A DNA stretch of 60,465 bases from Candidatus Dojkabacteria bacterium (GTDB taxonomy: Bacteria; Patescibacteriota; Dojkabacteria; SC72): assembly GCA_041678505.1 (NCBI GenBank), contig JBAYOB010000002.1, forward strand, positions 1 through 60,465, written 5' to 3'. The position numbers and the translations under genes are program-made. Positions 56,379 to 60,465 of the stretch are shown here, piece after piece. The notes under the pieces are model-generated. The model saw nothing but the letters and a program-made list of their open reading frames with translations. It was not told the DNA's origin and did no database searches. Each line of letters begins with the position of its first letter. The stretch's first letter is position 1.

Positions 56379-56445
56379 ATGTTCTACTGAGAGTCTTCAG
56401 TAGAACATGGGGTCAGATAAGGGACATAGTAGAACACTTATCTGA
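56379..56445. repeat. Twin perfect hairpins sharing a thrice-repeated 9-mer (candidate origin/operator or structured RNA)
   Basis: Hairpin A is ATGTTCTACTGA-GAGTCT-TCAGTAGAACAT (12 bp, 56379-408). Hairpin B is TCAGATAAG-15 nt-CTTATCTGA (9 bp, 56413-45). AGTAGAACA occurs at 56399-407 and 56428-436, and inverted at 56380-88. Confidence 0.6.
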
Positions 56446-56535
56446 AGGTATAACAATTAATAGATTCCTTTTAGAAACAATTGAGAGTGTGTTGTATTCA
56501 AAAGTAACTATTCCCAATGTATAATCTTCTAATTT

Positions 56536-58044
56536 ATGAAAATATCAAAATCAGAATATCTTATGTATCTGGATGCTCCAATGCATCTGTGGGCATATGT
56601 ACACAAGAAGCTAGATTCTAATATCATAGATACTTTTACAAAACATCTATTTGAACAAGGATATGAAGTTCAAAAATATGCAAAAGAATACATTGAAAAA
56701 ATACTGATTCCAGATTCTTATCATAATACTAAGCAATTTAATCTTGAAGTAACAAAATCAGATGGGTTATTTGAAGCAAGGATAGATTTACTTGTTTTTA
56801 ATGAAAAGAAGGGAAATTGGGACTTAATTGAAATAAAGAGTACTAATGATATCAAACCTATTCATCAAAAAGATTTGACTTTTCAATATCTTATTTTTTC
56901 TAAGCACTATAAAATTGGTAAGTGTTATATTTTACATTTGGATAAAGATTATGAAAGGAAAGGTCAATTATCAATTAAAGAATTATTTACATTAACAGAT
57001 ATTACTGAAAAGGTTTTTGAATTAGTTGAAGCAGTGAATATTGAAAGATTCCTAGCTTTAGAAGTAGCTCAACTAGAAGAGTTCAAAGAAGTAGAAGCCT
57101 GTATTAAACCCAAGAAGTGTCCCTGCAAATCCCTTTGTCATCCAGTATTACCTTCTTACTCCTTATATGATGTTGCCCGTATTAGTAAGGAAAAAGTAAA
57201 TTTTATTAGGGATAATTATTCAAATGATATACAGGATTTACCAAATGATAATCAATTAGGTAAATATGCACTAACTGAAATCCAAAGAAAACAAGTAGAT
57301 GTGGCTCAAAGAAAAACATCATATATTGATATATTGGGGATAGAATCTTTCTTAAAAGAACTTAAATATCCTTTATACTTTATTGATTATGAAAGTTTTA
57401 TTCCTGCTATTCCTATGTATGACAATTATAAACCCTATGATCAAATGCCTTTCCAATATTCATTGCATATTAGAGAATCAAGTGATTCAGACTTTATACA
57501 TAAGGAATATCTAGAATGTTCAGCTGTTGATCCTTCTGTAGGTTTAATAAATTTTTTAAAAAGAGATATCCCTTTGGATGGTGGATCAATAATAATTTGG
57601 AGTAAGTTTGAAAGAACTCAAAACAATGCTATGAGCAGAAGATATCCAAAAGAGTCTGAATTTATTGAGAATATTAATTCTAGGCTTTGGGACTTGATGG
57701 AAATATTCCAGAAATCAATGCTTGTTCTTCCAGAATTTAAAGGTAGCTATTCTATTAAAAATATTTTGCCTGTTCTTGTACCTGAGCTTTCTTACAAAGG
57801 TATGCCTATTGCAGATGGGTCAGTTGCTATGACAAAGTGGGTGCAGATGGTCTATGGAGGTGGGATTACAGCCATGGATTATTCAGAATCTGAAGATGGT
57901 TTTTGTACAGAGGCTATAGATATTCCTAAAGAATCTGTGAATAAAGAAGAAGTCAAAAAGAATCTTTTAGAATATTGTAAGTTAGATACCTGGGCTATGG
58001 TAAAGATTTTGGAGAAAGTGGAATCCATTATAAAAGCTTCTTAA
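56536..58044 (+). CDS. DUF2779-type protein: N-terminal Cas4/RecB-like PD-(D/E)xK domain, Cys cluster and a C-terminal acidic-motif domain
   Basis: EARIDLLVF...WDLIEIKS (D...ExK), CIKPKKCPCKSLC (four Cys), then YPLYFIDYESF...MPFQYSLH...YCKLDTWAMV. Confidence 0.55.
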   Translation: MKISKSEYLMYLDAPMHLWAYVHKKLDSNIIDTFTKHLFEQGYEVQKYAKEYIEKILIPDSYHNTKQFNLEVTKSDGLFEARIDLLVFNEKKGNWDLIEIKSTNDIKPIHQKDLTFQYLIFSKHYKIGKCYILHLDKDYERKGQLSIKELFTLTDITEKVFELVEAVNIERFLALEVAQLEEFKEVEACIKPKKCPCKSLCHPVLPSYSLYDVARISKEKVNFIRDNYSNDIQDLPNDNQLGKYALTEIQRKQVDVAQRKTSYIDILGIESFLKELKYPLYFIDYESFIPAIPMYDNYKPYDQMPFQYSLHIRESSDSDFIHKEYLECSAVDPSVGLINFLKRDIPLDGGSIIIWSKFERTQNNAMSRRYPKESEFIENINSRLWDLMEIFQKSMLVLPEFKGSYSIKNILPVLVPELSYKGMPIADGSVAMTKWVQMVYGGGITAMDYSESEDGFCTEAIDIPKESVNKEEVKKNLLEYCKLDTWAMVKILEKVESIIKAS

Positions 58045-58054
58045 AATTATGGAC

Positions 58055-58083
58055 TAGACAGGATATCCCTAGCTTGTTATACT
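58055..58083 (+). promoter_or_regulatory. Sigma70-like promoter TAGACA-N17-TATACT
   Basis: TAGACA at 58055-60, an exact 17-nt spacer and TATACT at 58078-83, immediately after the DUF2779 stop. Confidence 0.4.
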
Positions 58084-58149
58084 ATTTCTAGAAGTACTTG
58101 GGTGGTGCTTCGCTTTATCTCAATAAGGCAAAAAAACAAGAAGGAATGT

Positions 58150-58184
58150 AAGACACTAAGTTATTTAGAGTGTCTTTTTTGTTT
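58150..58184 (+). terminator. Rho-independent terminator/attenuator hairpin
   Basis: AAGACACT (58150-57) pairs with AGTGTCTT (58169-76), followed by TTTTGTTT. Confidence 0.55.
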
Positions 58185-58439
58185 AAAGATGTAATTGAAA
58201 ATAAAATTGAATCAGTTTTTGAAAGTAAGCACCCCTACTCTGGTAACAATTATCCAAAGCTTTTAAATCTCCTTGAAAAGACAGAAGGAGGACCTATTCA
58301 AAATGGAGAATATTATGTTAACTCTTTAATCAAATTTATCAGTATTTTAAATGAGGCAGAAGAGGAATCTCAAAGAAAGGAGGTAATCCCTGAAGAAGTC
58401 AAAAAGAGTTCTTTCAGAGATAGACAGAATGGAGATTAG
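58170..58439 (+). CDS. Doubtful hypothetical ORF (GTG/TTG start inside the terminator stem)
   Basis: It has no ATG in frame and starts within the 3' arm of the hairpin. Its composition is protein-like, but nothing else supports it. Confidence 0.25.
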   Translation: MSFLFKDVIENKIESVFESKHPYSGNNYPKLLNLLEKTEGGPIQNGEYYVNSLIKFISILNEAEEESQRKEVIPEEVKKSSFRDRQNGD

Positions 58440-58725
58440 TGAGATTCAGTTTGTTCCTGTTAAACCTCAAGGTGGTCTTGTTGCTTTTGCAAGTTTTGTA
58501 TTAAACAATTGCTTGTATCTAGGGTCTATTGGTATAGTAACAAGGCCAAGTGGAGGATACCGTTTATTATATCCCAGTAAGAAGGTTCTTAATCAAAATT
58601 TTTCAATCTTCCACCCTATTACTCAGCAATTTGGTATAGATATTGAAAGAAGAATACTCTTAGAATATGAAAAGGTAATGAAAATGAATGATAGACACGG
58701 TTGTTTTAACAATACCAGTACTTAG
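58429..58725 (+). CDS. SpoVG-like nucleic-acid-binding protein
   Basis: MEISEIQFVPVKPQGGLVAFASFVLNNCLYLGSIGIVTRPSGGYRLLYPSKK...FHPITQQFGIDIERRIL follows the SpoVG pattern (MEITDVR...KAFVSIT...PSRK...HPI). Confidence 0.55.
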   Translation: MEISEIQFVPVKPQGGLVAFASFVLNNCLYLGSIGIVTRPSGGYRLLYPSKKVLNQNFSIFHPITQQFGIDIERRILLEYEKVMKMNDRHGCFNNTST

Positions 58726-59791
58726 AGAAAATATTCTTGCTCCTGAGAGATTTTCACCATCTGCTAATGGATTATTTAAAGAACCCTTTTACAAGGGATA
58801 TACTCCATGTAAATTAAACCCATCAAAAGAGCAAAAAGATGAAGGGAGATATCTTCCAAGATTAACATTGTCTTCTAGACCTAAGAAGGGAAATTGGGAG
58901 GTTTCCCTAAGGATAGAGTTCTCTGCCCCAAAGATTCTATTTGGAAATAATCTAAAAGAAGTTGATGATAAGGATTATAAAGAGTTAATATCTGAACTTT
59001 GCTTCAAACTCTTTACAATGGGCATTAAATTAGATCAAGAACAGATAGAAAAGGCTTCTGTATCTTCTATACACTTCTGTAAGAATATACTCCTAGAACC
59101 CTACCAGAGCTGCTCTATGGTCATCAATGAGCTAGAAAGGTATGGGAACTATAATGAATGGTTGGATTTAGATAAAACAAGCTTTAGAAATGGAGGACAT
59201 ATTCTTCATCTTCACACTGATAGGTGGGAATTTGTGGTATATGATAAGTTAAGAGATCTTCAAAGAGCAAAATTAGGTGAAAGAAGATCTGTTGATAAAG
59301 ATAATTACTCCCAATTAGACATTTTTAATGATGATAAGAGCAAACAAGAAATTTTAAGATTGGAGTTAAGAATTAATAGTAAAATAAAGATTGCTACACT
59401 ATTGTCAAGTGTTGGCTGTGGTATGGCTCTAAAAAACATTACATTCAGAAATATCTTTAAGAAAGTTATATCAAGGAGATTATTAATAGCATTTTTAAGA
59501 AAGATAAAAATAATGAGGAGTATTTCAAATCAGAATACAAGTAATAGCAATATTCTTTCAATCTGTGAGAGCATAAAGAAGTCTCTTCCTCTAATAACAG
59601 ATAGTGAAATAATGAAACTAACTTTTGGTTTTATTTTTATCAATGAATATGGAATTAAAGCTTTTAAAAGGTATATGCAGTGGAATACCAAAAAAGCATA
59701 TAAATGGAACAGATTCTATAAAAAATTAGAGAAAATTTATACAGTGTGTAATAATAGAGACACTTTGGAAATAATTGAATCAAAAATATGA
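58688..59791 (+). CDS. Rolling-circle replication initiator of the filamentous-phage gene II/X (CRI) family
   Basis: MIDTVVLTIPV matches f1/M13 gpII MIDMLVLRLPF. LRIEFSAPKILFGNNL matches VEIKASPAKVLQGHNV. VSSIHF matches ISRIDATF, and ILRLELRINSK matches LVRFEARIKTR. The gpII sequence is from memory. Confidence 0.6.
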   Translation: MIDTVVLTIPVLRENILAPERFSPSANGLFKEPFYKGYTPCKLNPSKEQKDEGRYLPRLTLSSRPKKGNWEVSLRIEFSAPKILFGNNLKEVDDKDYKELISELCFKLFTMGIKLDQEQIEKASVSSIHFCKNILLEPYQSCSMVINELERYGNYNEWLDLDKTSFRNGGHILHLHTDRWEFVVYDKLRDLQRAKLGERRSVDKDNYSQLDIFNDDKSKQEILRLELRINSKIKIATLLSSVGCGMALKNITFRNIFKKVISRRLLIAFLRKIKIMRSISNQNTSNSNILSICESIKKSLPLITDSEIMKLTFGFIFINEYGIKAFKRYMQWNTKKAYKWNRFYKKLEKIYTVCNNRDTLEIIESKI

Positions 59792-60465
59792 GTACTAAAA
59801 AAGAATTAAAATTTATTGATCTTTTTGCAGGTATTGGGGGAACAAGAATTGGGTTTGAACAAGCAACTAAAGAGTTAGGTTTTATTCCTAAATGTGTGTT
59901 TACATCAGAGATAAAGACTGATGCTATTAATGTTTATTCTCAAAACTTTCAAGATAAAAAAATTGCAGGTGATATAACCCAAATTGAAGCAAAAGAAATT
60001 CCGGACTTTAATTTCCTTCTTGCAGGTTTTCCTTGCCAACCTTTTAGCTCTGCAGGAAGCAGAAAGGGATTTTTAGATACAAGAGGAACTCTATTTTTTG
60101 ATATAGAAAGAATATTAAAAGAGAAAGAGCCTGAAGGTTTCCTACTTGAAAATGTTGAAGGTTTGGTTAATCATGACAGGGGTAGAACTCTGTCTACTAT
60201 TCTCCAATCCCTTGAGAATCTTGGGTACAAGGTTGCTTGGAAAGTTATTAATGCAGCTAATCATGGAATCCCTCAAAATAGAAAAAGAATCTATATTGTT
60301 GGAAGAAGAGATAAGTTTGTTTCTTTGGAGAATTTAGTACAACAAGAATCAAAATTAGAAGATCTTTTAGAGAAGGATTTGCCTGCTTACAAATCTAAAT
60401 TTACTAAAAGACTTTTAGAGCATTATAAGTTAGATGAACTTGTAGGGAAATCTATAAAGGATAAA
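59788..60465 (+). CDS. dcm: DNA (cytosine-5)-methyltransferase, N-terminal 226 aa; runs off the window end
   Basis: Own translation: MSTKKELKFIDLFAGIGGTRIGF (motif I), GFPCQPFSSAG (motif IV), LLENVEGL (motif VI) and QNRKRIYIVG (motif VIII). The ATG overlaps the Rep TGA (ATGA). Confidence 0.85.
   Translation, partial: MSTKKELKFIDLFAGIGGTRIGFEQATKELGFIPKCVFTSEIKTDAINVYSQNFQDKKIAGDITQIEAKEIPDFNFLLAGFPCQPFSSAGSRKGFLDTRGTLFFDIERILKEKEPEGFLLENVEGLVNHDRGRTLSTILQSLENLGYKVAWKVINAANHGIPQNRKRIYIVGRRDKFVSLENLVQQESKLEDLLEKDLPAYKSKFTKRLLEHYKLDELVGKSIKDK

Follow-up and report, generated by a model that had tools for sequence, protein, structure and literature searches.

The window analysed here, a stretch of 60,465 nucleotides (nt), is one whole contig (JBAYOB010000002.1, forward strand) of the genome of a Candidatus Dojkabacteria bacterium (assembly GCA_041678505.1; 631 kb in 39 contigs, 94% complete). 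From 58.05 to 60.47 kb it appears to hold an integrated mobile element, of which the contig end leaves only the left part. The element includes two overlapping genes: one for a divergent 98-amino-acid (aa) member of the SpoVG family of nucleic-acid-binding proteins (58429..58725, forward strand; PF04026 match) and one for a 367-aa protein, called Rep below (58688..59791, forward strand), whose profile alignment with hhalign, predicted fold and motifs point to a rolling-circle-type initiator or nickase of the Rep_trans/Phage_CRI (gpII) superfamily. The same gene pair recurs across phyla in what is apparently an undescribed and widespread family of small chromosomal islands which carry restriction-modification (R-M) genes and insert at tRNA genes. 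An earlier description of the window made from its letters only (the sequence-only reading) had placed both open reading frames (ORFs) correctly, together with their overlap of 38 nt (58725-58688+1), and the pairing to which it drew attention is real: the two genes overlap in 67 of 68 loci.

Architecture of the islands

One scan of species-representative genomes yielded 293 Rep relatives. From these, 80 loci, a sample skewed to relatives of the query, were analysed; the ORFs neighbouring Rep were clustered, the recurrent clusters annotated, and architecture counts made on 77 loci. The genes of the element lie on one strand, in the order left-arm gene, SpoVG-like gene, Rep gene, often an HTH_17 gene, cargo and a large serine recombinase gene. 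The SpoVG-like gene is found directly 5′ of the Rep gene in 66 of the 75 loci with room for it. Where its 3′ end overlaps the Rep ATG (the 67 of 68 loci mentioned above), the overlap is 23–59 nt and always 2 mod 3, which places the two genes in the same relative frame. The HTH_17 gene (excisionase/AlpA-like) occurs just 3′ of the Rep gene in 24 loci.

Judged from its domains, the cargo is nearly always R-M. The 86 cargo proteins include N6_Mtase (17), Eco57I (14), MmeI_Mtase (9), Type ISP (6), N6_N4_Mtase (6), HsdS (5) and C5 methylase (3) domains, while the remainder includes several type II endonucleases, Vsr, Abi_2 and Fic proteins. Small genes of the HigB/HigA type recur adjoining the cargo. 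The recurrent neighbours in the 77 loci are R-M, HTH_17, HigBA and serine recombinase genes, and include no coat, assembly, packaging (terminase, capsid), gene V, pI/Zot-like or conjugation/coupling-protein genes.

Junctions with tRNA genes

A large serine recombinase (Resolvase, Recombinase and Zn_ribbon domains) is encoded on the same strand in 47 of the 50 loci whose downstream sequence reaches 7 kb or more. Where a tRNA gene follows closely (33 loci), the recombinase ORF always ends 12–93 nt inside that gene, which lies on the opposite strand with its 3′ end pointing into the element. These overlaps are mostly of 15, 42, 57 or 63–66 nt (e.g. L036:9332-10881, L072:12484-14019, L068:11969-13527). 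Since the ORF ends inside the tRNA gene, the C-terminus and stop codon of the recombinase would be encoded across or beside the attachment (att) junction. The target is most often tRNA-Asn (16 loci); tRNA-His, -Gln, -Arg, -Glu, -Pro, -Trp and -Val genes are also used.

On the left, a 12–20-nt copy of the tRNA 3′ end bounds elements of 6.8–13 kb in six loci, and in a genus-mate of the source genome (G003) a 16-nt tRNA-His end bounds a 12.6-kb island. An occupied and an empty site can also be compared, as genome G034 has an island where G014, of the same genus, has just the tRNA-His gene and the conserved flank. Together, the overlaps between recombinase and tRNA genes, the repeats of tRNA ends and this occupied-empty pair argue that the islands are site-specific integrative elements.

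The Rep protein

Used as a single sequence, Rep matches nothing in Pfam, NCBIfam, the PDB or PADLOC, and among the PHROGs only phrog_702, ‘replication protein’, at E 0.068. Its family is nevertheless large, with 894 representative clusters (at 50% identity) at E ≤ 1e-3, of which 292 at E ≤ 1e-30. The sequence-only reading had proposed a gene II-like initiator, after the gene II protein (gpII) of the filamentous phages f1, M13 and IKe, which is covered by the Pfam profile PF05144 (Phage_CRI) and is the closest sequence family. PF05144 leaves the Rep of the window unmatched at E ≤ 1, and a six-frame search of the source genome with it is also empty; it matches 9 of 59 Rep relatives, with a best E of 2.1e-6. 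PF02486 (Rep_trans) matches neither the Rep of the window nor the relatives tested. By these searches the Rep family is a sister family of PF05144, not a member, and falls outside Pfam coverage.

The relationship with gpII becomes apparent when families are compared. Eight inovirus gene II proteins (M13, IKe and six others) were aligned and compared with the Rep family profile by hhalign, which gave a probability of 85.7% and E 5.5e-6 over 252 columns, the C-terminal part included. The alignment pairs IEFSAPK with IKASPAK, VVYDK with VAYLK and LRLELRI with VRFEARI, and places Y185 of Rep on Y197 of gpII. These are exactly the short blocks that the sequence-only reading had recognized as common to the two proteins, and they are homologous, not due to chance. 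A 1999 study by Asano and co-workers is said to have identified Tyr197 of gpII as the DNA-linked residue. The significance of the match needed the eight-member alignment: M13 gpII by itself reaches only E 0.015 against the Rep family with hmmsearch, and a probability of 3.7% with hhalign. Against PDB sequences the Rep family profile gives chance-level matches only.

An AlphaFold model of Rep built on the family alignment (predicted local distance difference test, pLDDT, 85.6) has the two large beta-sheets of the TATA-binding protein (TBP)-like fold that characterizes Rep_trans and Phage_CRI proteins. A VIA-align structure search of 48,161 chains with this model ranked RepDE (Z 9.5, 227 aa aligned) and RepSTK1 (Z 8.5) first, followed by TBPs (Z 5.5–6.7). 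This is the pattern described by Carr et al., who noted the resemblance of Rep_trans initiators to TBP (PMC4797284). The comparison of predicted structures with gpII that the sequence-only reading had recommended also supports the relationship: Foldseek matches the model to Inoviridae G2P among viral models with a probability of 1.00; against the PDB its matches are weak (E 8e-3), and the top ones are Rep_trans proteins.

Most of the Rep_trans motifs (N′, I, III and IV, as listed in PMC5714925) can be located in Rep. The Asp of motif N′ corresponds to D3, conserved in at least 90% of the family. Motif III, YxKxxE/D, corresponds to Y185-D-K187-L-R-D190, with Y185 and K187 invariant and D190 kept in at least 90% of sequences; Y185 sits in a predicted strand of the model (E181-186). 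Motif IV, xRxE, corresponds to R224-x-E226, both residues being invariant in the family. Motif I differs, as the R-I-D of gpII aligns to S127-I-H129 of Rep, with a His in place of the Asp. This His belongs with Y185, K187, R224 and E226 to the invariant residues of the family, and the metal site of Rep may therefore be a variant or altered one. The protein consists of a catalytic core (approximately residues 1–275) followed by a helical C-terminal domain.

Taken together, sequence and model make it credible that Rep is a tyrosine nickase of the gpII/Rep_trans superfamily, representing a sister family. The gene II identity proposed earlier thus holds at the level of the superfamily, where Rep is a distant homologue of gpII, and not at that of the Phage_CRI profile, which misses the protein.

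The SpoVG-like protein

The 98-aa protein matches PF04026 at E 1e-9 with 38.8 bits (cut-off 29.6), positions 1–82 of the 82-position model aligning with residues 1–82, which bears out its earlier description as SpoVG-like. Its relatives are 97–99 aa long and cover 94–99% of the query. The protein scores 35 bits against the NCBIfam equivalog NF009749 (cut-off 108), well outside the range of orthologues, and as a single sequence it has no match among the SpoVG structures of the PDB. The profile of its family does find solved SpoVG structures (2i9z, 2i9x and 2ia9) at E 1e-5, end to end. Since the Pfam threshold is passed, the equivalog is missed by far and the family profile recovers three structures, we classify it on sequence grounds as a divergent SpoVG-fold protein.

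The sequence-only reading had expressed doubt about the start of the gene, pointing to a Shine-Dalgarno-like AAAGGAGG at 58376-58383 and an in-frame CTG at 58390. Both exist, the former inside the preceding ORF; the ATG at 58429 is favoured over the upstream CTG because position 1 of PF04026 aligns to Met1 and because the relatives are 97–99 aa long.

The source genome has no second SpoVG. Among 61 related genomes only five have a SpoVG-like gene, and in four of these five it adjoins a Rep gene. Its absence from the other 56 argues that it travels with the element, and is here neither a housekeeping gene nor a housekeeping regulator. Canonical SpoVG proteins (B. subtilis, S. aureus, Borrelia, Listeria) belong to the same Pfam family and have the same length and an end-to-end alignment with the solved structures; in contrast to these, the protein of the window is element-borne, lies far under the equivalog cut-off and lacks a single-sequence PDB match. 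SpoVG binds double-stranded DNA, single-stranded DNA (ssDNA) and RNA (PMC3688583; PMC11086051). In the literature we found no description of SpoVG as an accessory factor of gene II-type replicons, in agreement with the sequence-only reading, and no mention of it in a replication or mobility role beside such an initiator.

The copy in the window

The Rep gene of the window is followed by a gene for a C5 cytosine DNA methyltransferase (59788..60465, forward strand; PF00145, E 1e-73), of which the contig end leaves the N-terminal 226 of 432 aa. A Joint Genome Institute (JGI) metagenome contig (L129) is 100% identical to positions 58405-60465 (2061 nt) and extends 1.2 kb further; it completes the methylase and shows a convergent gene for an NgoBV-type endonuclease (PF09564 RE_NgoBV, E 2e-45). 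A methylase with an adjacent endonuclease identifies the cargo, by sequence, as a type II R-M pair.

Upstream of the SpoVG-like gene is an ORF of 89 aa (58170..58439, forward strand; its start may be the TTG at 58179), the first gene of the operon, which overlaps the SpoVG start by 11 nt. With the overlap between the SpoVG-like and Rep genes, and with the Rep stop and methylase ATG sharing an ATGA, this arrangement indicates that the 89-aa ORF, SpoVG, Rep and methylase genes form a four-gene, translationally coupled operon. The sequence-only reading had mentioned neither the 89-aa ORF nor the shared ATGA. The 89-aa product is 40% identical to that of a 102-aa ORF at the same position in L012 and in L030, another Dojkabacteria element (tblastn E 2e-10), and has a counterpart in L029 (neighbour-ORF cluster c20). 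It has no match in Pfam, PHROG, NCBIfam or PADLOC.

Three observations place the left end of the element, probably at about 58.05–58.12 kb. To its left lies a DUF2779 nuclease gene (56536-58044) which is 82% identical to a gene of a genus-mate lacking both SpoVG and Rep (G008; C24:13776-15298), and homology with that genome ends at the DUF2779 stop codon (58044). Homology with L030 begins at about 58077. A related contig of sequencing run X1 has a tRNA-like fragment fused directly to position 58122. The region from 53.7 to 58.0 kb is a separate accessory patch.

The leader between this end and the operon contains three features. A promoter-like site, TAGACA-17-TATACT with a TG extension (58055..58083, forward strand), agrees with the consensus at 10/12 positions and is the best promoter match of the region; its −10 region and the sequence beyond are conserved in L030, and it is the probable promoter of the operon. 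It is followed by a 7-bp hairpin with the loop TTGGGTG (58091..58111, forward strand), conserved in L030 with one compensatory G-C to A-T change, one G-U to A-U change and an identical loop. A TGGGTGG in the hairpin is similar, in reverse complement, to the 3′ end of tRNA-His (TGGGGTGG) and is the sole such match in the last 10 kb, where about 0.3 would be expected by chance. The hairpin is a candidate for the left junction (attL) or for a nick or binding site of Rep. Among the loci compared, the loop motif was seen in the window and L030 only. An 8-bp hairpin, AAGACACT/AGTGTCTT, then a T run (58150..58184, forward strand), forms an inverted repeat overlapping the start of the 89-aa ORF; L030 keeps the stem and T run with a different loop. 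This could be a terminator or attenuator, or a binding site. The leader has no Rfam match.

The insertion site of this copy is likely to be a tRNA-His gene just past the contig end, since tRNA-His is missing from the 36 assembled tRNA genes of the source genome, lies in genus-mates 5–6 kb from sequence homologous to the window and, in G003, is occupied by an element.

In run X1 the contig over positions 56384-59301 has a depth of 28, against about 51 on either side. Within the Rep gene, at 59272, an alternative branch joins it. A second variant with the same flanks seems to be present in the population. Contig C5 of the source genome starts inside a tRNA-Asn gene and C18 ends near a tRNA-Glu gene. 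Such breaks at tRNA genes may mark further islands.

A possible mode of propagation

We consider it probable that the element is an integrated R-M island which is excised and inserted at a tRNA gene by its recombinase, and replicated as a rolling circle following nicking by Rep, with the SpoVG-like protein as an accessory factor. According to this scheme the serine recombinase would excise the island as a circle and insert it again at the 3′ terminus of a tRNA gene (probably tRNA-His in this genus). Rep would nick a specific site in the circle through Tyr185, using a metal site formed by Asp3, His129 and Glu226, and the nick would start rolling-circle replication, maintaining or amplifying the excised copy and perhaps producing a strand for transfer. 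Translational coupling would ensure that the SpoVG-like protein is made in a fixed ratio with Rep, for which it could act as a small DNA-binding accessory or regulator that recognizes or remodels the origin, or coats ssDNA. The R-M cargo would pay for the upkeep of the element and make its loss costly. There is a precedent in ICEBs1 and Tn916, where Rep_trans proteins act as both relaxase and replication initiator of the excised element (PMC5704250; PMC5714925). It is possible, although still rather tentative, that the islands constitute a cross-phylum class of mobile elements dedicated to R-M and other defence cargo, in which a His-variant nickase needs a SpoVG-fold partner.

Hairpins of at least 8 bp occur in the 320 nt 5′ of the SpoVG-like gene in 30 of 67 loci, compared with 8.9 ± 2.6 in shuffled sequences and 13 of 67 coding controls. 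The excess fits an origin or an operator; terminators of the upstream genes would give the same signal.

Several observations weigh against the scheme as a whole or parts of it. The excised circle, the nick site, the origin and the accessory role of SpoVG are all inferred. The regions 5′ of SpoVG have no sequence motif in common, their hairpin excess aside, and in the window the left junction rests on a resemblance of 7 nt. With its metal-binding Asp of motif I replaced by an invariant His, Rep is only assumed to be active. The recombinase and right end of the window copy are unassembled, and the other contigs of the genome contain neither a recombinase nor the endonuclease; contigs aligned to the window region, which lacks the right end, gave no circular junction (one of them runs 3 kb past the window end). 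Finally, the SpoVG gene is missing from 11 of the 77 Rep loci (in two of them the upstream sequence is shorter than 350 nt), and in one island, that of genome G059, the SpoVG-like gene is coupled by overlap to a gene for a 233-aa HTH_36 protein unrelated to Rep. Given these loci and this island, SpoVG may serve the element generally, for instance in regulation, and not Rep in particular.

Among other explanations, the islands might be integrative mobilizable elements (IMEs), with Rep mainly a relaxase like MobT that nicks an origin of transfer (oriT), helper conjugation moving the island and SpoVG serving as a relaxosome accessory. This is compatible with excision and rolling-circle replication, from which it departs solely in the main role given to the nick; we think it unlikely that this role is transfer. 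A relaxase-like protein is indeed present in the island, and a small gene overlapping a relaxase gene is the usual spot for an accessory factor. Streptococcal IMEs similarly pair integrases with initiator-like relaxases (Rep_trans, Rep_2, PHA00330) in compact modules (PMC5357655; PMC5704250). However, no TcpA/VirD4-like coupling protein or other transfer gene figures among the recurrent neighbours. In addition, many of the hosts are bacteria of the candidate phyla radiation (CPR) with genomes of 0.6–1 Mb, and conjugation systems are rarely reported in CPR bacteria.

It seems quite improbable that the islands are phage satellites, that is, that rolling-circle replication by Rep provides concatemers which a helper phage packages, as proposed for the marine virion-encapsidated integrative mobile elements (VEIMEs). 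These are small integrase islands, found as concatemers, and in one of their modules serine recombinases and replication genes of the plasmid type abound, often with AlpA-type regulators (bioRxiv 10.1101/2022.07.26.501625), and the HTH_17 gene that follows Rep in the 24 loci would suit such a comparison. Neither terminase, capsid nor other packaging genes recur near Rep, however, and no Rep relative was found in 2.9 million IMG/VR contigs or, by tblastn, in 50,697 phage and 72,556 plasmid records.

Alternatively, SpoVG and Rep could be a regulator and a domesticated nuclease working with, or controlling, the adjacent defence genes and having no part in replication. The linkage to R-M or other defence cargo is constant, SpoVG proteins are known regulators, and in the G059 island the partner of the SpoVG-like gene is a helix-turn-helix protein instead of Rep. 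Against this, SpoVG-Rep and the recombinase are retained as the cargo switches freely (R-M types I, IIG, ISP, III and II; toxin-antitoxin; Abi), some elements (L033, L034, L036) have Rep and the recombinase with no cargo at all, and PADLOC does not recognize the pair, which leaves such a role very improbable. An inovirus-like prophage or autonomous ssDNA plasmid, as the sequence-only reading had envisaged from the homology of Rep with gpII, is hardly tenable: its downstream check turns up a C5 methylase and an NgoBV-type endonuclease where ssDNA-binding, coat and pI genes would be expected, the 77 loci have no recurrent gene V, coat or pI/Zot-like cluster, relatives have a serine recombinase abutting a tRNA gene and sit on chromosomal contigs as long as 4 Mb, and the phage, plasmid and IMG/VR collections contain no match.

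Relation to known systems

As an integrated island replicated with the help of a rolling-circle-type initiator, the element would be of a known kind; the partnership with SpoVG is its new and most testable feature. Its closest known parallels are the Rep_trans initiators and MobT relaxases (pT181 RepC/RepD, pSTK1 Rep, ICEBs1 NicK, Tn916 Orf20; PF02486). These share with Rep the TBP-like double beta-sheet fold, the catalytic Tyr in a Y-x-K-x-x-acidic motif, the N-terminal Asp and the x-R-x-E motif, and NicK and Orf20 likewise work inside integrative elements. In contrast to these, Rep has no PF02486 match, an invariant His for the Asp of motif I and another C-terminal helical domain, and its family has a SpoVG partner gene and resides in elements with a large serine recombinase at tRNA genes. 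With gpII, Rep shares the MID..VL N-terminus; unlike that of gpII, its context is chromosomal and integrative, with no gene X, gene V or morphogenesis genes nearby.

Streptococcal IMEs (Coluzzi et al. 2017, PMC5357655) have the same compact module of an initiator-like protein, an excisionase-type HTH protein and an integrase, and likewise insert at conserved genes, including tRNA genes, and carry adaptive cargo. Their integrases are mostly of the tyrosine type, a TcpA coupling protein is frequently present, and the papers on them do not mention SpoVG (PMC5357655; PMC5704250), whereas the islands described here have a large serine recombinase, no coupling protein among their recurrent neighbours and a different family of initiator. 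Looser parallels are found in defence-carrying integrative islands such as the pipolins and in the marine VEIMEs.

Distribution and significance

The labelled hosts of the 80 loci comprise about 19 CPR metagenome-assembled genomes (MAGs) and about 29 Alphaproteobacteria (many of them Rickettsiales and Micavibrio), together with Gammaproteobacteria, Omnitrophota and others. Distribution is patchy, Rep being present in 11 of the 61 related genomes. Landfill and wastewater are among the sample types that contain the element. Small-genome episymbionts, predators and intracellular bacteria are frequent among the hosts (CPR, Micavibrio, Vampirovibrio, Pseudobdellovibrionaceae, Babeliales, Rickettsiales, Omnitrophota), which we mention as a lead only. 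In the literature we found no description of the Rep family or of its fixed link to tRNA-targeting serine recombinases.

The islands are currently unannotated because the Rep family, with some 900 clusters at 50% identity, is invisible to Pfam; a profile of the family would flag R-M and defence islands in CPR bacteria, Alphaproteobacteria, Omnitrophota and others. In CPR bacteria, whose mobile elements are little known, the islands offer a concrete route for the movement of defence genes and, if our interpretation is correct, would be among the first defined families of mobile elements. It would also imply the first role of the SpoVG family in the replication or mobility of a genetic element. 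SpoVG is widespread and poorly understood, and its Rep-coupled version in hundreds of islands provides a simple and testable setting for its function. It is unusual for large serine recombinases to be targeted reproducibly to tRNA 3′ ends and to have their stop codon within the tRNA gene, and those of the islands provide a ready set of natural attB/attP pairs.

Left-arm genes and variant islands

The left-arm gene is variable. A protein of cluster c3 (approximately 200–520 aa; e.g. L041:6447-7475) precedes SpoVG in 39 of the 77 loci, 67 of which have at least 2 kb upstream. Being heterogeneous (17% column identity), without a Pfam match and with unnamed, phage-rich clusters as its nearest neighbours in the Atlas, it was dropped from further consideration. 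In some loci c3 is replaced by a DUF6387 protein.

The cargo-free loci L033, L034 and L036 are minimal elements which also lack SpoVG; in these, Rep is followed by the serine recombinase and then by a tRNA-Gln or tRNA-Glu gene. L034 is binned in a MAG of the Promethearchaeota (Asgard archaea); either faulty binning or a genuine transfer may account for this. In the G003 element, and in this one alone, a 152-aa ORF with a ‘Recombinase’ domain only (L013:9472-9930) lies between SpoVG and Rep and looks like an inserted recombinase fragment. The G059 island (L130:3905-10486; G059:C31) is of the same type as the others, with a 400-aa ORF, HinP1I and Vsr genes on its left side and, on its right, a resolvase fragment followed by a 551-aa serine recombinase whose gene overlaps tRNA-Glu.

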